A stretch of DNA of 64,000 bases. It comes from Bacilli bacterium (lineage in GTDB: Bacteria > Bacillota_I > Bacilli_A > RFN20 > CAG-826). Both the position numbers and the translations under genes were made by a program. The notes below the pieces were generated by a model that was not told the origin of the DNA, searched no databases, and was given only the letters and a program-made list of their open reading frames with translations. The DNA is taken from NCBI GenBank assembly GCA_041673725.1, contig JBAYXD010000001.1, forward strand, positions 23,760-87,759. Reading direction: 5' to 3'. Below are positions 34,533 to 44,934 of the stretch, one piece after another; position 1 is the first letter of the stretch, and each line of letters starts with the position of its first letter.

Positions 34533-34793
34533 CTAACCTTTTAAACCATCCGATTGTCTTTGCATATTTTCAACAACAACATCACTAATATCACCAATAG
34601 ATTGGGCATATTCAAGAATTTGCCATGGCTCATTAGTATGGAAATGAATCTTAATTAAAGTGTCATCTCCGACAGCAATTAAGCAATCACCCTTAAAATG
34701 TTCAGTAATATACTTATTTATTTCATCCTCATTTAAACCAGTCCCATTAATTAACAATTGCGTATCAAACTTAAATTCTAATTTTTCTGACAT
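34533..34793 (-). CDS. small protein resembling the central segment of DAK2-fusion protein YloV
   Basis: 86 aa from MSEKLEF; GDCLIAVGDDTLIKIHFHTNEPWQILEYAQSIGDISDVVVENMQRQ closely matches the YloV region GDSL-VVgdddlvkVHvHTndPgkvle-a--lGeL--ikieNMreQ; RBS AAAGGAGAAAC; sits between T-box and pheS. Confidence 0.45.
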   Translation of the reverse strand: MSEKLEFKFDTQLLINGTGLNEDEINKYITEHFKGDCLIAVGDDTLIKIHFHTNEPWQILEYAQSIGDISDVVVENMQRQSDGLKG

Positions 34794-34799
34794 ATTTGT

Positions 34800-35075
34800 T
34801 TCTCCTTTAGAAATAAAAAAAGAACTAGTTAGGAGCGAATTTCTCCGCGGTACCATCCTAATTCTTAATTAAACTTAATTAAACTATTTAACGCATAGAA
34901 TGCGGGTTCATCAAACCTGCTCAGAGGTGAATTTCATAGGTCTAATCGAAATGTTTCCACTATCCATTTCTCACTAGAAATTAGTAACTCTATTACTACT
35001 CCTCATCAACGCATTAATATAATATCATTTTATTAATTTTTCTTCACTACTTTTTGAAGGCAAAAAATACTGAAT
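34800..35075 (-). promoter_or_regulatory. T-box riboswitch leader (presumed Phe specifier) controlling the small ORF and pheST
   Basis: minus-strand T-box sequence AGGATGGTACCGCGG (plus coords 34845-34859), then a short stem and T7 run just before the RBS. Confidence 0.6.
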
Positions 35076-35090
35076 AGGGAATATTCATTT

Positions 35091-35654
35091 TTAATTGTAA
35101 TTAGTAAAGAATCTTTCGGCTTCATCTACAAACTCTTCAAAATTAAAGTCTTTATTTTGTAGGCCTTTATGCACAATTGCTCCATCAGTTAATAAAAGAA
35201 TCAACCACGATAAGAATTTTGCATCTTCAGGTTTACATTCAGTTTTAATTCTTTCGTAGATAGATTTGTTAAAAAGATTGTATTTCTCAATCATTTTTGT
35301 CTTTAAAACTTCATTCCCATTCGTGCACTCAGCAAGTAAATTGATTCGCATAGATGGATAACTAGTTCCTTTTAAGAGAACAAACTTAACAATACGATGA
35401 AGAGAAGTATCCTTATCTTTATTATCTATCCAAGTGATTAAATCATTATATAATTCATCGATTCTCCTCGAAAAGATGTCATAAACAATATCACTCTTAT
35501 TTTGATAATAGTAATAAATTGTACCACTGCTTATTTTGCAACTCTTCGCTACATCTCTTAAAGAGATATCAGAAAAATTTTTATTTACTAATAATTTTTC
35601 AGTTTCCTTAAGAATTAATTCTTTGATGTTTTCGCTATTTCTTTTTCTTGCCAT
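35091..35654 (-). CDS. TetR/AcrR family transcriptional regulator
   Basis: N-terminal HTH LRDVAKSCKISSGTIYYYYQNKSDIV, 187 aa, divergent from the flavoenzyme cluster. Confidence 0.8.
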   Translation of the reverse strand: MARKRNSENIKELILKETEKLLVNKNFSDISLRDVAKSCKISSGTIYYYYQNKSDIVYDIFSRRIDELYNDLITWIDNKDKDTSLHRIVKFVLLKGTSYPSMRINLLAECTNGNEVLKTKMIEKYNLFNKSIYERIKTECKPEDAKFLSWLILLLTDGAIVHKGLQNKDFNFEEFVDEAERFFTNYN

Positions 35655-35715
35655 AAAAATGTCCTCTAAAATCCATTGTTTTTAATTTATGAATATTATA
35701 TACTAATTTTATTAA

Positions 35716-35731
35716 ATCGGTCAATCGACCG
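35716..35731. promoter_or_regulatory. candidate TetR operator palindrome in the divergent intergenic region
   Basis: TCGGTC-AATC-GACCGA perfect 6-bp inverted repeat, GC-rich island in an AT-rich spacer, about 25 nt upstream of the RBS of the plus-strand cluster. Confidence 0.45.
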
Positions 35732-35753
35732 ACATAAGTTTGGAAGGTTACAT

Positions 35754-37463
35754 ATGAAAATCAAAAAATTAGAAAAAAAGTTTAAGAAACTCTATCCTTC
35801 AATTAATGTTGAAGAAAAAGATGGTTGTGTCCATTTAACCGGTACTCTCGATAATTGGGATGATATCGTTAATGCTGGTTATTTATCTGTTGATAAAAAG
35901 CGTTATATTGGTGTTCTTAACGATATAAAGTTAAAAGATTTCGTTGAACCAACCATGAGAATTCCAAAAGTAGTCGATAAATCACTTGAGGGATTAAAAG
36001 TTGATTGTCTTGTAATTGGAGGCGGAATATCTGGCACTTCAATCCTCAGAGAACTCATGCGTTATAACGTTTCGGCTTTATTAGTTGAAAAAGAATCTGA
36101 TTTAGCTATGCAAGCAAGTGGACGAAACGATGGAGAAGTTCATCCAGGTGTCGACTTAAATAAAGGTAGCAAAAAACAATACTATGTTGTTAGATCAAAC
36201 CCAGATTTTGGAAAGATTTGTGATGAACTGGGCGTTGATTTTTTTCGTAGAGGTCAATATGCTTGTTTTGATAAACCTCTAAGTCCAATATTAAAATTAT
36301 TTGCTAAATTCCGTACAAAAAATGGATGCCCTACTGAAGTTGCTAGTAAAAAAGAAATTGAAGAAAAAGAGAAATTCTTTAATAAAAATGTAAAATGCGC
36401 AGTTTCTAATCCTCAATCAGGAGTTGTTTCGCCATATGAATTAACCATTGCTTTTGCAGAAAACGCAGTTGCAAATGGAGCAAAAGTTTCGTTAGATACT
36501 GCAGTTTTAGGAATAAATGTTGAAAATAACCGAATAATTTCAGTGGTTACAAATAGAGGAATAATCTATCCAAAAGTTGTTATCAATGCTGCCGGATGTT
36601 TTTCAGATAAAATAGCCGAAATGGCTCATGATAGATTTTTCACTATTCATCCACGTTGTGGAACTGACTATATATTAGATAATAAGGTCAGCAATCAAAT
36701 TAACCATATTTCTTCTATTATGGGTAAAACAAATAATAAGAAAAAACATTCTAAAGGTGGAGGAATTGTTAAAACTATTGATAATAATATTTTAATTGGT
36801 CCTAATGCTCACGAAACACCATATCGTGAAGATTTTTCTGTTACTTCTTGTTCGTTAGATGAAATACTACATAAACAAGAAAGACTTCTTCCAACATTAA
36901 ATAAAAAAGATATCATCGCATATTTTAGCGGTACAAGAGCTGCAACATATGAAGAAGATTTTTATATTAGCAAAGGATTAAGAACAAAAAATATTGTTCA
37001 TTGCGCTGGAATACAATCTCCTGGGTTAACCACTGCACCACTCGTTGCTAAAGATATTAGCAAGATGGCAATTGAGGAATTAAAAGAAATTCAAAATGTT
37101 GATATTAATCCTAAATTCAATCCTATTCGCAAAAAAGATCCTGTTTTAAGAAAACTAAGTAACGAAGAAAGAACTGAATTAATCAAAAAGAATCCAAGCT
37201 ATGGACGTATTGTCTGTCGTTGCGAACAAATTAGTGAAGGTGAAATTGTTGATTGTTTAAACCGTAACATAAAAGTTCCAACAATAAATGGAATTAAAAG
37301 ACGTGTACGACCTGGGATGGGTCGATGCCAAGGAGGATTTTGTATGCCATTGGTCGCAAAAATTATTGCTGATCATGAACATATAAATATTTATGATGTT
37401 AAGGGAAAACAAATGGATAATCCAGTAACTTTCAAATCTACGAAAGGAGAAAACCATGAATAA
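35754..37463 (+). CDS. FAD-dependent oxidoreductase, GlpA/LhgO-like, with C-terminal BFD-like [2Fe-2S] domain
   Basis: start refined to ATG at 35754 (RBS GGAAGG); dinucleotide fold VIGGGISGTS...LLVEKESD; C-terminal CRCEQISEGEIVDCL...GMGRCQGGFC BFD motif. Confidence 0.75.
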   Translation: MKIKKLEKKFKKLYPSINVEEKDGCVHLTGTLDNWDDIVNAGYLSVDKKRYIGVLNDIKLKDFVEPTMRIPKVVDKSLEGLKVDCLVIGGGISGTSILRELMRYNVSALLVEKESDLAMQASGRNDGEVHPGVDLNKGSKKQYYVVRSNPDFGKICDELGVDFFRRGQYACFDKPLSPILKLFAKFRTKNGCPTEVASKKEIEEKEKFFNKNVKCAVSNPQSGVVSPYELTIAFAENAVANGAKVSLDTAVLGINVENNRIISVVTNRGIIYPKVVINAAGCFSDKIAEMAHDRFFTIHPRCGTDYILDNKVSNQINHISSIMGKTNNKKKHSKGGGIVKTIDNNILIGPNAHETPYREDFSVTSCSLDEILHKQERLLPTLNKKDIIAYFSGTRAATYEEDFYISKGLRTKNIVHCAGIQSPGLTTAPLVAKDISKMAIEELKEIQNVDINPKFNPIRKKDPVLRKLSNEERTELIKKNPSYGRIVCRCEQISEGEIVDCLNRNIKVPTINGIKRRVRPGMGRCQGGFCMPLVAKIIADHEHINIYDVKGKQMDNPVTFKSTKGENHE

Positions 37464-38700
37464 GTACGATACAATCGTAATTGGTGGCGGACCAGCAGGT
37501 CTTGCTGCTGCAATCAGTGCCCATAATAATGGTGCTAATGTATTTTTAATTGAACGTGAAGCTAGACTTGGAGGTATTTTAAAACAATGTATCCATGATG
37601 GCTTTGGTTTACTCTATTTTAATGAAAAACTTTCTGGTCCTGAATATGCTCAAAATTTTATTGACAAGTTTAATGATTTAAAAATCGAATCCACTACTAA
37701 CAGTTTTGTTACTAAAATTATTAAAAAAGATAATCTATTTTATATCGATTATGTTTCCGAAAAAGGTATGCAAACCGTTATTTCGAAAACACTTATTTTA
37801 TCGACAGGATGTCGAGAAAGAACTTCTAAACAAGTGTTTATCAACGGAACAAGACCATATGGAGTATTTTCTGCTGGTACTGCTCAATATTTTACAAATA
37901 TATTAGGGGTTCTACCTGCTAAGAAATGTGTAATTTTAGGAAGTGGCGATATTGGTTTAATTATGGCTCGAAGATTAACTCTCGAAGGCGTGAAAGTTTT
38001 GGGAGTATATGAAATTCTTCCATCCCCATCAGGTTTAACCCGAAATATTCATCAATGTTTACTCGATTATAATATTCCACTACATCTATCCCATACTGTA
38101 ACGAGATTATTTGGTGAAAATCGTTTAGAAGCTGTTGAAATATCCAAAGTTGATGAAAAACTTCAACCAATTAAAGGTACGGAAGAGAAAATTGAATGTG
38201 ATGCCTTGATTCTTTCTGTAGGTTTACTTCCTGAAAACGAATTAGCTGAATCACTTGGTGTTCCACTTGATCCAAGAACTAGAGGACCAATTGTAAATGA
38301 AGATTATATGACAATGGTCGATGGAGTCTTTACTTGTGGAAACGCAATGCAAGTAAATGATTTAGTGGATTATGTCTCATTCACTGCTGAAAAAGCAGGT
38401 ATGAGTGCTGCAAAATACGCAATTCAAAATAGAAGTTATAATGAAGTAAGTGCTTCGAAAGATTTTGGTTATGTTTTGCCTCAAAGATTATCTAAAGAAA
38501 TTAAAGAAGAAAATGTCGACTTTTACTTCCGTTCAAAAAAGATTGAAGAAAAAGTTCAAGTACAATTGATCTCTAATGACAAAGTTGTATTTTCAAAAAC
38601 TTATATGCATCTAAAACCACCAGAAATGGAAAAGATTACTATTAAATCTAGTGATTTAAATGTTGATGGTAATCTTGAACTTATTATGAAAAGAGGTTAA
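37456..38700 (+). CDS. FAD/NAD(P)-binding pyridine nucleotide-disulfide oxidoreductase (NADH-oxidase-like partner subunit)
   Basis: IVIGGGPAGLAAA FAD fold, second Rossmann motif ILGSGDIGLIMA, 414 aa; start overlaps the upstream gene stop. Confidence 0.75.
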   Translation: MNKYDTIVIGGGPAGLAAAISAHNNGANVFLIEREARLGGILKQCIHDGFGLLYFNEKLSGPEYAQNFIDKFNDLKIESTTNSFVTKIIKKDNLFYIDYVSEKGMQTVISKTLILSTGCRERTSKQVFINGTRPYGVFSAGTAQYFTNILGVLPAKKCVILGSGDIGLIMARRLTLEGVKVLGVYEILPSPSGLTRNIHQCLLDYNIPLHLSHTVTRLFGENRLEAVEISKVDEKLQPIKGTEEKIECDALILSVGLLPENELAESLGVPLDPRTRGPIVNEDYMTMVDGVFTCGNAMQVNDLVDYVSFTAEKAGMSAAKYAIQNRSYNEVSASKDFGYVLPQRLSKEIKEENVDFYFRSKKIEEKVQVQLISNDKVVFSKTYMHLKPPEMEKITIKSSDLNVDGNLELIMKRG

Positions 38701-38702
38701 TT

Positions 38703-39071
38703 ATGAAAGAATTATCATGTATTGTATGTCCAAATAGTTGCTCTCTTAAAGTTGAATTGGTTGATGGAAAATATGTTGTTACTGGTAATAAATGTAAACG
38801 TGGAGAAAACTTTGCAATTAACGAAATGACTCGACCAATGCGAACTATTTCTTCTACTGTTCGTACAACATTTAGTGATGCACCAGTCGTTCCAGTTAGG
38901 GTATCTAGTGAAATTCCTAAAGATAAAATATTTGATGTTATGAAAGAAATTAATAAAGTAGTCCTTAATAAAAGAGTAAAAAGAGGCTATAAAGTAATTA
39001 GTAATTGTCTAGATTTAAATATTGATGTTATCGTCACTAGTAATGTATTAGTTGATAAAAAAGGAGAATAA
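38703..39071 (+). CDS. DUF1667 Cys-rich small subunit of the GlpA-like complex
   Basis: 122 aa; N-terminal CIVCPNSCSL...GNKCKRGENF Cys cluster typical of DUF1667; co-located with the two flavoproteins. Confidence 0.6.
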   Translation: MKELSCIVCPNSCSLKVELVDGKYVVTGNKCKRGENFAINEMTRPMRTISSTVRTTFSDAPVVPVRVSSEIPKDKIFDVMKEINKVVLNKRVKRGYKVISNCLDLNIDVIVTSNVLVDKKGE

Positions 39072-39072
39072 G

Positions 39073-40614
39073 ATGCCAAATACTGAACCGTTAGTTTTCT
39101 CGTTTGACTTTGGTACCCAAAGCGTCCGAGCAATGCTTGTTGATAAGGATGGAAAAATTGTCTCTTTAGTTAGAGAAAAATATAATCCCCCTTATTATTC
39201 AAAAAAGATAGGCTATGCTGAGCAATCATTTGATACCTACTATAAATATGCTTGCATTGCCGCAAAATCTTTAAAAGAAAAGAATAAGAAATTATTTGAT
39301 CAAATAATTTGCGTTACCATCACCACTATTCGTGATACCTTCACTTGTAGTGATGAAAAAGGTAAACCAATTAGAGATTTTATTTTATGGTTAGATCAAA
39401 GAAGAGCAACTCATCATGAAAAGATGCCACTTTATAAGAGGATATTATTTAAAGCAGTAAGTATGGATTATGCTCTTGAAAGACAAAGAGAAATTTGTCG
39501 TCCAGCCTGGATTAAAGAAAATGAACCTGATATTTGGGAAAATACAAAAAAATTTAGTAATATTAGTGCAATTTTAAATGCTAAGTTAACCGGAAATTAT
39601 GTCGATTGTAACGCCTCTTGTATTGGTCACGTTCCATTTAATTATAAAACTAGAAATTGGATGAAAGAAAATGAACTTACTTATCCTTTATTTGAATTAG
39701 AACCAGATAAATTTATTAAAATTGTCACTCCAACTTCCCAAATTGGAAAAATAACTAAAGAAGCAGGCAACGAAACCGGATTAAAAGAAGGTTTACCTGT
39801 AATTGCTAGCGGTTCGGATAAAGGTTGCGAAACTATTGGCTCCGGCGTTATGAATAATTATTCAGCAGCTTTATCGATGGGAACAAGTGCAACTATTCAA
39901 TTTGCTACAAGAAAATATGTCGAACCAGCCAAGTTTTTACCCGCTTATCCATCTCCTAATCCAGATTTTTATAATCCTGAATTACAAGTTATGCGAGCAG
40001 GATGGATGTTTAGTTGGTTTATTGAAAACTTTGGTTTTGAAGACAAATTAATTGCGGAAAAGGAAGGTGTTTCACCTGAACACGTAATTAATCGTCAACT
40101 AGATAAAGTTCCATTAGGTTCTGGAGGATTATTACTACTTCCATACTGGAATGCACCACTAAAACAACCTGAAGCTCGAGGAACTATCTTAGGTTTTATG
40201 CCAGATCACAATAAATACTATATCTATCGAGCAATTATTGAAGGTGTCGTCTTTACTTTATATCAAGGATTCCAAACCTTAGAAAAAAATTCAAAACATC
40301 ATACTAGATATCTAGTAATCTCTGGAGGAAGTTCAGTAAGCGAAACAATTTGTCAAATCGTTGCTGATATCTTCAATCTTCCAGTTAAAAGGTCTAGAGA
40401 AAGTGAAGCTTGTGGTTTAGGTTCAGCAATGTGTGGATTTGTTGGGATGGGAGTTTATAAGTCATTTGATGAAGCGGCTAAAAATATGGTCCACTACTCA
40501 AAGACTTACGAACCAATAAAAGAAAATCATCTTGAATACGAAGAGATATATCGTAAAAAATTTGTAAAACTATATCCAAGTATTCGTGGTGTATATCGTA
40601 ACTATATTAAATAG
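39073..40614 (+). CDS. FGGY-family carbohydrate/polyol kinase (not canonical GlpK)
   Basis: start refined to ATG at 39073 (RBS AAAGGAG); phosphate-1 motif FDFGTQSVRA; FGGY N- and C-domains (SGGSSVSE); lacks the GlpK DQGTTSSR signature. Confidence 0.7.
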   Translation: MPNTEPLVFSFDFGTQSVRAMLVDKDGKIVSLVREKYNPPYYSKKIGYAEQSFDTYYKYACIAAKSLKEKNKKLFDQIICVTITTIRDTFTCSDEKGKPIRDFILWLDQRRATHHEKMPLYKRILFKAVSMDYALERQREICRPAWIKENEPDIWENTKKFSNISAILNAKLTGNYVDCNASCIGHVPFNYKTRNWMKENELTYPLFELEPDKFIKIVTPTSQIGKITKEAGNETGLKEGLPVIASGSDKGCETIGSGVMNNYSAALSMGTSATIQFATRKYVEPAKFLPAYPSPNPDFYNPELQVMRAGWMFSWFIENFGFEDKLIAEKEGVSPEHVINRQLDKVPLGSGGLLLLPYWNAPLKQPEARGTILGFMPDHNKYYIYRAIIEGVVFTLYQGFQTLEKNSKHHTRYLVISGGSSVSETICQIVADIFNLPVKRSRESEACGLGSAMCGFVGMGVYKSFDEAAKNMVHYSKTYEPIKENHLEYEEIYRKKFVKLYPSIRGVYRNYIK

Positions 40615-40631
40615 AAAAGGAAACAAAAAAA

Positions 40632-42365
40632 ATGAGCAAAAAGAAACAAGGTTTTTTACCAAAATGGGTTACTGAGGAAGCTTCTCCTAGATCTTATAGA
40701 TCTATTTCTCGATGGGGAGATCCAAAATTTGTAAAGTATCCAAAACCAGCTTTATATGAATTTATGAAGCAAACTTTTAAGATGACAGATGAAGATTTTA
40801 ACCATTACCATAACGATACTGGTTTTGAAGATGTTAATATTAAAATCCCAACCAAAATGGCTGAAAAAGACATCAAAGCTTTAAGCAAGATTGTTGGTAA
40901 TAAGAATGCATCTTTAGATGAATATGATAGATTATCCGTTATGTATGGCAAGACTTTATATGATGTCATGCGAATCCGTGAACACAAGTTTGATAGTGTC
41001 CCTGATTTAGTCTTATATCCAGAAACAACCGAACAAATCGAGAAAATAGTTGCTTATTGCACTACTAATAAAATACCACTTTATGTTTATGGAGGTGGTT
41101 CTAGTGTTACGCGAGGTGTTGAACCTGTTAAAGGTGGTGTATCTTTAGATATGCGTCGTAACTTTAATAAAGTATTAGGTTTTAATGAAATTGATCAAAC
41201 TATAACTGTTCAAGCTGGTATGAGTGGACCAGATTTAGAGCACCACTTAAATAATGCAATTAAAGAATTTAATGCAAAACGTGCTTTTACTTGTGGTCAC
41301 TTTCCACAATCCTTTGAATATTCTTCAGTTGGTGGTTGGGTTGTAACTCGTGGTGCTGGTCAAAATAGTACTTATTATGGTGTTATTGCAGATATTGTAT
41401 TATCACAAAAATATGCGACTCCAATCGGAACAATTAAGACTTCCCACTACCCAAGAGAATCGACTGGACCAAACCTCAATCAAATCATGATGGGTTCAGA
41501 AGGCACCTTTGGTGTTTTAACTGAAGTTACCCTTAAAGTGTTTAGATATATGCCAGAAAATCGTAAAAGATATTCATATATGTTTAAGACTTGGGAAGAT
41601 GCTATGAATGCCGCAAGAGAAATCATGCAAAGTGAAGATGGTTATCCATCAGCCTTTAGAGTTAGTGATGCAGAAGAAACTGATATGATGCTTAAACTAT
41701 ACAACGTTGATGAATCTCCACTTCGTCTATTCTTAAAAGGCTTTGAACCAATGAAACGAAGTTTAATGCTTGGTTTCACTGAAGGTGATACTGGTTATTC
41801 TAAAAATATTCGTAAAACTATTGCTCGTGTTGCAAGAAAATATCATGCTCGTTCATTAACTGGTATTGTTTGTAAGAGTTGGGAACATGGTAGATTCACT
41901 GATCCATATTTACGTGATACACTCTTAGATTTTGGTATTGCTACTGATACCTTAGAGTGCACTGTTAATTGGTCAAATATGGCAAAAGTTCATGAAGAAG
42001 TTCGTAAAATTTGTCATGCTAGACCAAATACTGTTGTTACAACTCACTTATCACATGCTTATCCACAAGGTGCAAACCTTTACTTTATCTTTATTACTCA
42101 TAGTGAAACTAGTGATGACTTCAAAAAATATCACTCCACTATTCTTGATGCAATTCAAAAAAGTGGCGCTGCAATCTCACATCACCATGGTATCGGTAAG
42201 ATGTTTGCTCCATGGCTTGAAGGCTATATAGGTAGAAAAGAATATGGTGTCTATCATGCGTTAAAAGACTACTTCGATAAAGATTATCTCATGAATCCAG
42301 GCGGAACAATTGGTCTTGATTTAAAAGAAAAAGACAAAAAGTTCTTAAATAAAGACGTTAAATAA
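40632..42365 (+). CDS. FAD-linked oxidase of the alkyldihydroxyacetonephosphate synthase (AGPS)-like subfamily
   Basis: 577 aa; pre-FAD N-terminal extension with RWGDPKF; PCMH FAD domain VYGGGSSVTRGVEP; strong blocks shared with animal AGPS (FEYSSVGGWVVTRGAG, STGPNLNQIMMGSEGTFGV, SHHHGIGK...NPG). Confidence 0.7.
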   Translation: MSKKKQGFLPKWVTEEASPRSYRSISRWGDPKFVKYPKPALYEFMKQTFKMTDEDFNHYHNDTGFEDVNIKIPTKMAEKDIKALSKIVGNKNASLDEYDRLSVMYGKTLYDVMRIREHKFDSVPDLVLYPETTEQIEKIVAYCTTNKIPLYVYGGGSSVTRGVEPVKGGVSLDMRRNFNKVLGFNEIDQTITVQAGMSGPDLEHHLNNAIKEFNAKRAFTCGHFPQSFEYSSVGGWVVTRGAGQNSTYYGVIADIVLSQKYATPIGTIKTSHYPRESTGPNLNQIMMGSEGTFGVLTEVTLKVFRYMPENRKRYSYMFKTWEDAMNAAREIMQSEDGYPSAFRVSDAEETDMMLKLYNVDESPLRLFLKGFEPMKRSLMLGFTEGDTGYSKNIRKTIARVARKYHARSLTGIVCKSWEHGRFTDPYLRDTLLDFGIATDTLECTVNWSNMAKVHEEVRKICHARPNTVVTTHLSHAYPQGANLYFIFITHSETSDDFKKYHSTILDAIQKSGAAISHHHGIGKMFAPWLEGYIGRKEYGVYHALKDYFDKDYLMNPGGTIGLDLKEKDKKFLNKDVK

Positions 42366-42397
42366 AAAATAAAGCTCCTTAATTGGAGCTTTTTAAA
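42366..42397. terminator. bidirectional intrinsic terminator between AGPS-like gene and TrmH gene
   Basis: AAAAAATAA-AAGCTCC-ttaatt-GGAGCTT-TTTT; convergent gene ends. Confidence 0.6.
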
Positions 42398-43857: not shown

Positions 43858-44934
43858 ATGGAAACTATTATTGTAAGTGCTTGTTTATTAGGCGATAAAT
43901 GCCGTTATGATGGCAAAGATAACTATAACGATAACGTTAAGTTTTTAAAAGAACACTTTAATATTGTTCCTATTTGTCCTGAAGTTTTTGGTGGAATGTC
44001 TACTCCACGTGTTCCAAGTGAACAACGTGAAGGTTCTGTTGTTGATAAGAATGGAAAAGATGTTACTAAGTATTTTGAAAAAGGTCGAGATGATGTATTA
44101 AATATTGTTAAATATCTCCATATAAGAAAAGCTGTTTTAACTGAAAACTCCCCTTCTTGTGGAATTCATAAGGTCTATAATGGTCGTTTTAATAATACTT
44201 TAATTGATGGTAATGGTATCACCACTAAAGCTCTTTTAGAGTTAGGTGTTGCTTGTTATAGCATCGATGAAGTTGAAAAATTAATTGATAAGACTCAAAA
44301 ACAACTTTACGAAATTAAAGAACAAGAAATTCTTGAACACGAAAGAATCAATAAAGAAAAAGCAGCTAAGAATGCGGAGTATTCCACTATTGATAACAAA
44401 GCTTATCAAGAAAAGAGACGTGCTGAACGTAGCAATTATTCAAAAGATGGTGATTATAGTTCAAATAGAAGAGAAGGATATTCAAGAGGATATTCATCTC
44501 GTTCTAGAGATGATAATTATAGTAATCGTAATAGCGAACCAAGAAGCGGCTATTCAAGAGGTTATTCTTCTCGTTCTAGAGATGATAACTATAGTAATCG
44601 TGGAGATTCACGAGGCAATTATTCAAGAAGTTCTACTCGTGATGGCGATAGACCATATTCTTCACGCCCATATAAAAAGAGTTACTCAAATAATTATTCT
44701 AGAGATTCTAATTCTCGTGATGATAGTCGTTCCTATTCTTCTAGAACTCCTAGAAGATCCTATGATAATAATTATTCAAGAGATTCTAATAGTCGCGATA
44801 GTAGCCGTTCATATTCTTCTAGATCTACTGGAAGAAGCTATTCAAAAGGTTATTCATCAAATTCAAGAAGTTCATATAATACACGTAATAAATCAAGCTA
44901 TTCAAAACCAAAAGACAATGATGAAGGTAAATAA
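43858..44934 (+). CDS. DUF523 (TudS-like thiouracil/thiouridine desulfidase, [4Fe-4S]) domain fused to a long Arg/Ser/Tyr-rich repetitive low-complexity tail
   Basis: residues 1-140: IIVSACLLGDKCRYDG, CPEVFGGMSTPRVPSE, ENSPSCGIHKVYNGRFNNTLIDGNGITTKAL match the DUF523/TudS Cys triad signature; residues about 190-358 made of GYSRGYSSRSRDDNYSNR and NNYSRDSNSRDDSRSYSSR type repeats. Confidence 0.75.
   Translation: METIIVSACLLGDKCRYDGKDNYNDNVKFLKEHFNIVPICPEVFGGMSTPRVPSEQREGSVVDKNGKDVTKYFEKGRDDVLNIVKYLHIRKAVLTENSPSCGIHKVYNGRFNNTLIDGNGITTKALLELGVACYSIDEVEKLIDKTQKQLYEIKEQEILEHERINKEKAAKNAEYSTIDNKAYQEKRRAERSNYSKDGDYSSNRREGYSRGYSSRSRDDNYSNRNSEPRSGYSRGYSSRSRDDNYSNRGDSRGNYSRSSTRDGDRPYSSRPYKKSYSNNYSRDSNSRDDSRSYSSRTPRRSYDNNYSRDSNSRDSSRSYSSRSTGRSYSKGYSSNSRSSYNTRNKSSYSKPKDNDEGK
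44476..44841 (+). repeat. in-frame imperfect tandem repeats inside the RS-tail coding region
   Basis: two 72-nt units (44476-44547, 44548-44619) and two roughly 75-78-nt units (44689-44766, 44767-44841) encoding the RS/Y-rich peptide repeats. Confidence 0.7.

Follow-up and report, generated by a model that had tools for sequence, protein, structure and literature searches.

A TetR-linked flavoenzyme and kinase operon

The DNA analyzed here is a 64,000-nucleotide stretch (the window) of contig JBAYXD010000001.1, positions 23,760 to 87,759 of the forward strand, from an uncultured low-GC "Bacilli bacterium" metagenome-assembled genome (GCA_041673725.1). All coordinates below are those of the window. 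Between positions 35091 and 42365 it carries a TetR-family repressor gene and, divergent from it, five plus-strand genes that end with a flavoenzyme of the AGPS superfamily. In animals, protists and myxobacteria, AGPS (alkyl-dihydroxyacetonephosphate synthase, EC 2.5.1.26) is the enzyme known to form ether bonds. We found that the cluster recurs as a unit in many other bacteria, and we tentatively propose that it acts on C1-substituted glycerols. The genes, and the hairpin that follows them, are listed here.

35091..35654, minus strand: TetR-family repressor gene, 187 aa (TetR_N E=1.9e-9), divergent from the operon
35754..37463, plus strand: GlpA-like FAD dehydrogenase, 569 aa (DAO E=1e-53; Fer2_BFD E=1e-9)
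37456..38700, plus strand: Pyr_redox_2 ("NOX"-type) FAD subunit, 414 aa (Pyr_redox_2 E=8e-30)
38703..39071, plus strand: DUF1667 Cys-rich subunit, 122 aa (DUF1667 E=2.6e-27)
39073..40614, plus strand: FGGY-family kinase, 513 aa (FGGY_N and FGGY_C, E about 1e-30 and 4e-28)
40632..42365, plus strand: AGPS-superfamily flavoenzyme, 577 aa (FAD_binding_4 PF01565 E=8e-31; FAD-oxidase_C PF02913 E=7e-32)
42371..42392, no assigned strand: terminator-like hairpin, bidirectional (8-bp stem, T-run on both strands)

A sequence-only reading of this DNA, made without database searches, had described a divergent TetR gene facing a tightly packed plus-strand operon with overlapping stops and starts. All six genes were found in this arrangement with domain matches, and the tight packing held; overlap, on the other hand, occurs at a single junction, where the GlpA-like and Pyr_redox_2 genes share 8 nt. 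The remaining gaps are 2, 1 and 17 nt, and there is a ribosome-binding site (RBS) at each junction. No terminator-like site was found on the plus strand within the five-gene block, and the hairpin at 42371-42392 starts 6 nt past the stop codon of the AGPS-like gene. The five genes make up a self-contained operon that TetR very probably represses. The rest of the 64-kb window consists mainly of minus-strand housekeeping genes and holds no paralogue of any of the six genes.

The GlpA-like gene starts at ATG 35754, with the RBS GGAAGG, and an identical 569-aa protein is already in the databases; TTG 35676 was rejected as its start on both grounds. TTG 39052 was likewise rejected as the kinase start, and ATG 39073 (513 aa) agrees with gene calls. 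Over 36000-42000, the GC skew turns positive (+0.10 to +0.13) within a long minus-strand housekeeping stretch, and the GC content over the operon is slightly higher (0.32-0.34 versus about 0.29-0.31). These shifts fit coding-strand bias or acquisition of the block alike.

The cluster is conserved across many anaerobes

Close relatives of the AGPS-like protein number in the thousands. A search that took one genome per species matched at least 595 loci, and the gene is therefore present in at least 595 species-representative genomes. The best 80 of these loci were re-annotated with the six window proteins. Their AGPS-like proteins are 66-72% identical, and the loci come chiefly from animal and human guts. 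According to the record titles, the taxa include Clostridia (Acutalibacteraceae, Oscillospiraceae, Lachnospiraceae and Ruminococcaceae), Treponema, Erysipelotrichaceae and others. Carriers available in culture include Extibacter muris DSM 28560, Faecalicatena contorta, Diplocloster modestus and Clostridium cadaveris. Operons of the clostridial type also appear in bins titled Escherichia coli, Hallerella, Alloprevotella or Bacteroidaceae (L054, L055, L066 and L079), which are probably mis-binned or mislabelled, so taxon counts drawn from titles need care.

Wherever the contig extends far enough in the 80 loci, the AGPS-like gene is immediately preceded by the genes for the GlpA-like, Pyr_redox_2 and DUF1667 proteins. 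A gene for the FGGY kinase is present in 64 loci, between the DUF1667 and AGPS-like genes in about 50 and immediately after the AGPS-like gene in 14. It is missing from the other 16, and no substitute kinase was found near the AGPS-like gene there. Conservation within the set is highest for the AGPS-like gene. By comparison, the genes that flank the operon differ from species to species, and clustering of the flanks of the 80 loci revealed no recurrent transporter and no further recurrent enzyme. The neighborhood comparison suggested with the sequence-only reading shows a gene order conserved across 80 species. The data strongly support a widespread cluster whose genes are inherited together in many anaerobes, most of them Clostridia of the gut.

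A separate DUF1667 open reading frame (ORF) was not detected in five loci (L015, L027, L045, L066 and L072), where the Pyr_redox_2 ORF is longer (about 465-490 versus 414 aa). The two subunits may be fused there, or DUF1667 may have diverged.

The last gene encodes an AGPS-superfamily flavoenzyme

The last gene had been read as an AGPS-like FAD-linked oxidase, and the comparisons bear this out. Residues 31-557 match Dictyostelium AGPS (PDB 2uuu) with E=1.6e-72, and guinea-pig AGPS is matched with E=9e-57, whereas D-lactate dehydrogenase and glycolate oxidase reach only about 1e-18. The AGPS-specific N-terminal domain is present, with the alignment running from query residue 31 and residue 42 of the Dictyostelium chain, and it is highly conserved in the orthologues. 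Arg419, Tyr578 and His615-617 of guinea-pig AGPS, which we take to be catalytic, correspond to R343, Y477 and H517-519 and are invariant in 20 orthologues. The first 37 Foldseek matches were all AGPS, obtained with a poor model (predicted local distance difference test score, pLDDT, 63.5). Assignment of the gene to GlcD or D-lactate dehydrogenase was ruled out, since those matches are some 50 orders of magnitude weaker and the GlcD-annotated outgroup carries E/F/GEH instead of R/Y/HHH.

We placed the protein in a small neighbor-joining tree of 15 sequences. The R/Y/HHH residues mark an entire AGPS-like superclade, E. coli YgcU included. Dictyostelium AGPS pairs within it with a Streptomyces protein (bootstrap 93) whose gene is flanked by those for an SDR and a lysophospholipid acyltransferase. 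The other members are an actinobacterial clade, a clade from polyethylene glycol (PEG) and dioxane plasmids, YgcU-like proteins, and the clade of the window protein. Because the residues mark the whole superclade and the window clade is separate within it, with weak support for its position, we file the enzyme as an AGPS-superfamily member with AGPS-type catalytic equipment and not as a demonstrated EC 2.5.1.26. It resembles the AGPS of eukaryotes and Myxococcus in its FAD_binding_4 plus FAD-oxidase_C fold, its N-terminal domain and its Arg/Tyr/HHH residues. It differs in its genomic partners, which are a dehydrogenase and a kinase with no acyltransferase or reductase.

The three-subunit dehydrogenase has features of a distinct subfamily

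The first three genes had been likened to the archaeal and clostridial three-subunit glycerol-3-phosphate (G3P) dehydrogenase, and the likeness proved sound, since the architecture is that of the GlpTk type. A complex of G3P dehydrogenase, NOX and DUF1667 or "MOX" has been reconstituted from Thermococcus kodakarensis, and C. perfringens and T. maritima have the same architecture (Koga 2019). A canonical GlpTk-type copy was found on a Ruminococcus albus plasmid. The window operon shares with this type three adjacent genes in the same order, namely DAO plus BFD, Pyr_redox_2 ("NOX") and DUF1667 ("MOX"). The DUF1667 protein has four cysteines near its N terminus, Cys 6, 9, 13 and 31.

The best NCBIfam match of the GlpA-like protein is type 2 G3P oxidase, at 196 bits versus a cut-off of 460. 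H51 and R320 of MpGlpO, the Mycoplasma pneumoniae G3P oxidase, are its catalytic His and phosphate-binding Arg; they correspond to H130 and R395 and are invariant in the alignment used for comparison. Because both are kept, the substrate is likely to be a G3P-type phosphate ester with a 2-hydroxy group. In several other respects the protein departs from the GlpTk type. Identity to AGPS-linked orthologues is 52-57% along the whole protein, whereas canonical enzymes reach only about 35% and align only from residue 81-84 onward. The window subfamily has SGRNDGEVH where canonical enzymes have SKANSxxVH, and it carries a 5-residue insertion with the active-site loop ...KGGG in place of ...GKGILV. 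The insertion loop corresponds to F250-H256 of MpGlpO, on the C1 side of bound G3P. About 84 residues at the N terminus form an additional domain in the window dehydrogenase, whose gene is always linked to one for an AGPS-like protein. These features argue for a distinct subfamily and against a canonical G3P dehydrogenase.

For the N-terminal domain (residues 1-60), the AlphaFold2 model has an alpha-beta-beta-alpha-beta order (pLDDT 88.6). Its top Foldseek matches are the BON domains of OsmY, DolP and CdsD, which are weak (E 7e-3 to 0.09). Pfam BON scored under its cut-off (18 versus 27 bits); it was matched in 8 of 32 orthologues, always under the cut-off, and is the only Pfam family to recur there. 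DolP, one of the folds compared, is a phospholipid binder. The domain may therefore be BON-like and possibly membrane-directed, which we regard as a lead and not as a result.

The kinase is not GlpK

According to the sequence-only reading, the kinase lacks the GlpK signature. Profile classification agrees, in that the protein reaches no curated NCBIfam model. XylB scored 229 bits versus a cut-off of 380, and the GlpK models TIGR01311 and NF000756 scored 121 versus 590 and 97.5 versus 498. The best solved relatives are gluconate kinase and LsrK. At 121 bits against a cut-off of 590, plain GlpK was ruled out.

We aligned the kinase and 12 orthologues with E. coli GlpK, XylB and YgcE. The glycerol pocket of E. 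coli GlpK is formed by R83, E84, W103, Y135, D245 and F270. The window kinase retains Arg83, Trp103 and the catalytic Asp245, and position 84 is acidic (R-D, invariant in the 12 orthologues), whereas XylB has M-H at the first two pocket positions (GlpK 83/84). Thr replaces Phe270, and Tyr135 appears as Q where the alignment is uncertain; the pattern is the same in the 12 orthologues. Such a pocket would fit a glycerol-like diol head group and would be more open than that of GlpK.

A predicted TetR operator is conserved upstream of the operon

The TetR protein reaches the cut-off of no NCBIfam equivalog. It has an N-terminal helix-turn-helix (HTH), a divergent target operon and a conserved inverted repeat in the shared intergenic region, where the following sites were identified.

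35717..35732, no assigned strand: candidate TetR operator, TCGGTC-N4-GACCGA (TCGGTCaatcGACCGA), conserved in orthologous loci
35695..35724, minus strand: promoter-like site of tetR, TTGACC-18-TATAAT, with 11/12 consensus matches, the best in the region
35676..35704, plus strand: candidate operon promoter, TTGTTT-17-TATACT, read from the sequence; weak, 3/6 and 5/6

A TCGGTC-N4-GACCGA palindrome had been reported at 35716-35731. The palindrome is present, but it lies one base to the right, at 35717-35732, where the letters read AGTCGGTCnnnnGACCGACT. It is unique in the 64-kb window even when up to two mismatches are allowed. We asked how often it accompanies a divergent TetR gene, within 900 bp, in other loci. 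Divergent TetR orthologues lie upstream in 24 of 68 testable loci, and the palindrome (up to two mismatches) precedes the first gene in 22 of these 24, with seven perfect copies. Among control windows drawn from these loci, 45 of 1540 (2.9%) held an equally good match. The family consensus is usually extended, to AGTCGGTC-N4-GACCGACT. The conserved palindrome is a phylogenetic footprint of the predicted TetR operator.

The -35 hexamer of the tetR promoter-like site overlaps the left arm of the palindrome. The candidate operon promoter scored under the threshold of the consensus scan; relative to it, the operator would sit at about +6 to +21. Regulation of the cluster is not uniform, because many loci (e.g. 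L030-L035) have neither TetR nor the palindrome. In L073, L079 and L080, a regulator of about 240 aa that looks to be of the GntR type lies just past the TetR gene.

Related clusters in other bacteria

Tsukamurella and Kitasatospora carry an AGPS-like gene followed by a diacylglycerol-kinase-family (DAGK) gene, together with divergent genes for a TetR protein and a GlpD-type G3P dehydrogenase. As in the window, four functions are thus found together in one divergent, TetR-containing cluster, and the AGPS-like proteins of both share the RWGDP, GHFPQS and HHH motifs. They differ in that the kinase belongs to the DAGK family instead of FGGY, the dehydrogenase is of the single-subunit GlpD type, and the AGPS-like proteins are 30% identical. 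The firmicute and actinobacterial TetR proteins share generic HTH similarity only, so orthology cannot be argued for them. M. tuberculosis Rv2249c-Rv2252 probably has the same layout, and a literature search found no published function for the actinobacterial cluster. Its kinase and dehydrogenase come from families other than those in the window, yet the four functions stay together, a case of independent convergence. This is the strongest available argument that a kinase, oxidation of the G3P-dehydrogenase type and AGPS-type chemistry form one pathway. The lipid-kinase family of the actinobacterial cluster points towards a lipid-like glycerol derivative as the substrate.

Plasmids of Sphingopyxis macrogoltabida, a PEG degrader, and of Xanthobacter dioxanivorans, a dioxane degrader, carry AGPS-like genes beside those for GST, GMC oxidoreductase, aldehyde dehydrogenase and acid-CoA ligase. 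The plasmid protein belongs to the same superclade, has R/Y/HHH and is 29% identical to the window protein (E=2e-61). The Sphingopyxis gene that adjoins GST is presumably an ether-cleaving PEG-carboxylate dehydrogenase. The presumed substrate of the plasmid system, R-O-CH2-COO-, is an alpha-alkoxy carbonyl compound, as is alkyl-dihydroxyacetone phosphate (alkyl-DHAP). The plasmid hosts, on the other hand, are aerobic proteobacteria, and their acid substrates have no phosphate. On a Rhodococcus plasmid (L092) and a Sphingopyxis plasmid (L093), AGPS-like genes adjoin genes of the "sterol desaturase family". We take this family to be the fatty-acid hydroxylase superfamily that includes alkylglycerol monooxygenase, and these neighbors hint at a link between the superclade and ether metabolism.

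The ygc cluster of E. coli K-12 (2892657-2903374) encodes AGPS-like YgcU, which keeps HHH and the Tyr, and the FGGY kinase YgcE. It also encodes ETF-like YgcQR, FixCX-like YgcNO, a GlpP-like antiterminator, an SDR and two transporters. An AGPS-like flavoenzyme near an FGGY kinase and electron-transfer proteins is common to both systems. YgcU and YgcE, however, are 28% and 25% identical to the window proteins, YgcU has no N-terminal domain and aligns from about query residue 123, and ygc has ETF partners where the window operon has NOX and DUF1667, and includes transporters. No published function for YgcU was found in the literature. The ygc cluster may be a distant functional cousin of the window operon.

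The textbook glp operons (glpFK with glpD, glpO or glpABC) likewise combine a kinase with an FAD dehydrogenase that acts on a glycerol-phosphate skeleton. The window operon has no GlpK, GlpF, GlpP or GlpR, and adds TetR and the AGPS-like enzyme. The earlier statement that this is not a textbook glp operon is correct, since a non-GlpK kinase is combined with an AGPS-like last enzyme and a dehydrogenase of a distinct subfamily.

A proposed pathway for C1-substituted glycerols

A full-text literature search found no published description of this operon and no pathway for it. The sequence-only reading had suggested an oxidation route for a phosphorylated polyol or glycerol derivative under TetR control. 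Our results support that suggestion, with a kinase that is not plain GlpK and a last gene that is neither GlcD nor D-lactate dehydrogenase. We favor, tentatively and with somewhat less than even confidence, a route in which the operon handles a C1-substituted glycerol by phosphorylation, C2 oxidation and flavin-mediated exchange or cleavage, a glyceryl ether being the likely substrate. The FGGY kinase would phosphorylate the free primary hydroxyl of the C1-substituted glycerol, for example a 1-O-alkylglycerol. The BON-tagged GlpA-like/NOX/DUF1667 complex would then oxidize C2 to give a 1-substituted dihydroxyacetone phosphate. After enolization and formation of a flavin-N5 adduct at C1, the AGPS-like enzyme would replace or remove the C1 substituent. 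The products would be DHAP, or a close derivative, for glycolysis and a free alcohol. Such a route would serve mainly for the O2-free cleavage or remodelling of ether bonds.

In its most specific form, which we judge rather unlikely, this route would be an O2-independent cleavage of glyceryl alkyl ethers in which the AGPS-like enzyme runs in "reverse" to yield DHAP and a fatty alcohol. Candidate substrates would be 1-O-alkylglycerols or lysolipid forms of them, with ether lipids of the diet, the host or microbes as the source. Alkylglycerol monooxygenase, which depends on O2 and tetrahydrobiopterin, is so far the only enzyme described for cleavage of the glyceryl ether bond (PMC3617469, PMC7911779, PMC9192799).

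Several points favor the general route. Beta-elimination cannot expel an alkoxy group that sits alpha to a ketone. For the exchange of such a group, AGPS chemistry is the known way, and without fatty alcohol, water acts as the nucleophile. Oxidizing beside the bond and then substituting is the only known means of exchanging an alkoxy group alpha to a carbonyl, and the LigD/LigEF route for lignin beta-aryl ethers follows a parallel logic. The catabolic direction fits the local repressor, the kinase and dehydrogenase layout, the mobile, patchy distribution and the lack of acyltransferase and reductase genes. The lack of a linked transporter fits a membrane-permeant or membrane-resident substrate.

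Several observations weigh against the proposed route. Because R/Y/HHH is common to the whole superclade, the residues do not prove a non-redox exchange, and the AGPS-like enzyme may be a true dehydrogenase that passes electrons to the NOX/DUF1667 module. The window clade lies apart from bona fide AGPS in a tree whose basal support is low (34-56%). The BON assignment is weak, given sub-cut-off Pfam matches and the Foldseek E values cited above. The known substrates of FGGY kinases are soluble sugars and polyols, not lipids, and the absence of the kinase from 16 of the 80 loci means that its step is dispensable or that the substrate is already phosphorylated. Finally, the direction, cleavage versus synthesis, is not readable from sequence.

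Alternative explanations

If the AGPS-like enzyme instead ran forward, the operon would serve ether-lipid biosynthesis, supplying acyl-DHAP (from lyso-phosphatidate) or DHAP (from glycerol via G3P) as, for example, a DHAP-type substrate. The AGPS-like enzyme would then swap an acyl group for a fatty alcohol and so produce 1-O-alkyl lipids anaerobically. In favor of such a role, the protein strongly resembles AGPS along its whole length, including the N-terminal domain and the catalytic residues, and Myxococcus AGPS is implicated in making ether lipids. AGPS chemistry does not need O2, a BON-like domain could put the dehydrogenase at the membrane, and the four-gene core without the kinase fits an already phosphorylated substrate. 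No acyltransferase, fatty-acyl reductase or alkyl-DHAP reductase, however, was found in or near the cluster in the 80 loci, and the window clade falls outside the group formed by Dictyostelium AGPS and the Streptomyces protein with its SDR and acyltransferase neighbors. The local TetR, patchy distribution and variable flanks give the cluster the look of an accessory or catabolic unit. In clostridia, DHAP was excluded by tracer work as a plasmalogen precursor, a result that concerns plasmalogens only (PMC9702350). On balance, we consider a biosynthetic operon unlikely but a serious rival to the cleavage route.

The catabolism of a soluble polyol, in the manner of erythritol, is less probable still. 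Here the kinase would act on a C3-C5 polyol, the GlpA-like complex would oxidize the product, and the AGPS-like enzyme would be a second dehydrogenase acting on the keto-phosphate. EryA and EryB provide a precedent, in that Brucella EryB oxidizes a polyol phosphate. FGGY kinases do act on soluble sugars and polyols, and the best models for the window kinase are XylB, LsrK and gluconokinase, all sub-cut-off. In Shinella and E. coli, YgcU-type genes also pair with FGGY kinases, with ETF-type genes and sugar ABC or MFS transporters beside them, but at 28% (YgcU) and 25% (YgcE) identity the window proteins are distant from that system. Against a soluble substrate, no transporter, isomerase or aldolase is linked in the 80 loci, the kinase is missing from 16 of them, and the actinobacterial analogue employs a lipid-kinase family.

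An ordinary glycerol or G3P locus, with a divergent glycerol or dihydroxyacetone kinase, a plain G3P dehydrogenase and an unrelated 2-hydroxy-acid dehydrogenase (e.g. for D-lactate of the methylglyoxal bypass), is very improbable. In its favor, the catalytic His and phosphate-binding Arg of G3P oxidase are present in the dehydrogenase, JGI names the orthologues of that enzyme glycerol-3-phosphate dehydrogenase, and part of the GlpK glycerol pocket is retained in the kinase. Against it, the kinase scores far under the GlpK cut-offs, no glpF is linked, the last gene favors AGPS over D-lactate dehydrogenase and GlcD by 50 orders of magnitude and has R/Y/HHH, the dehydrogenase has subfamily-specific features and about 35% identity to the canonical GlpTk type, and the AGPS-like gene is both strictly linked to the dehydrogenase genes and the most conserved member.

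The GlpTk-type dehydrogenase architecture is known; what is new is a widespread variant centered on an AGPS-superfamily enzyme. Also new here are the recognition of the dehydrogenase as a distinct subfamily, the separate clade of the AGPS-like protein and the analogous cluster in Actinobacteria. In hundreds of strictly anaerobic gut species, a gene of this distinct AGPS-superfamily clade ranks among the best conserved of its operon. If the operon does cleave or make glycerol ethers, it would supply a missing anaerobic step of ether-lipid turnover in guts and sediments and would suggest a function for the similar actinobacterial cluster. The role in ether metabolism aside, the operon represents a large unannotated enzyme set.

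Neighboring features of the window

On the minus strand beside the tetR gene, a T-box leader (RF00230, 106 bits) lies 5' of pheS/pheT at 34828-35018. A small stand-alone ORF of 86 aa (34533-34793, minus strand) separates the leader from pheS, inside the T-box-controlled pheST unit; it matches only the middle domain of FakA, a fatty-acid kinase subunit (PF21645, E=2.8e-19). Downstream of the operon, a plus-strand gene at 43858-44934 encodes a fusion protein, with a 2-thiouracil desulfurase domain (PF04463) at residues 4-135 followed by a tail of about 200 aa in which Ser, Arg, Asp and Tyr are abundant. A 78-bp tandem repeat lies within the tail, at 44689-44835. This region differs among strains, because a related contig (L082) carries another gene, of 183 aa, in its place.

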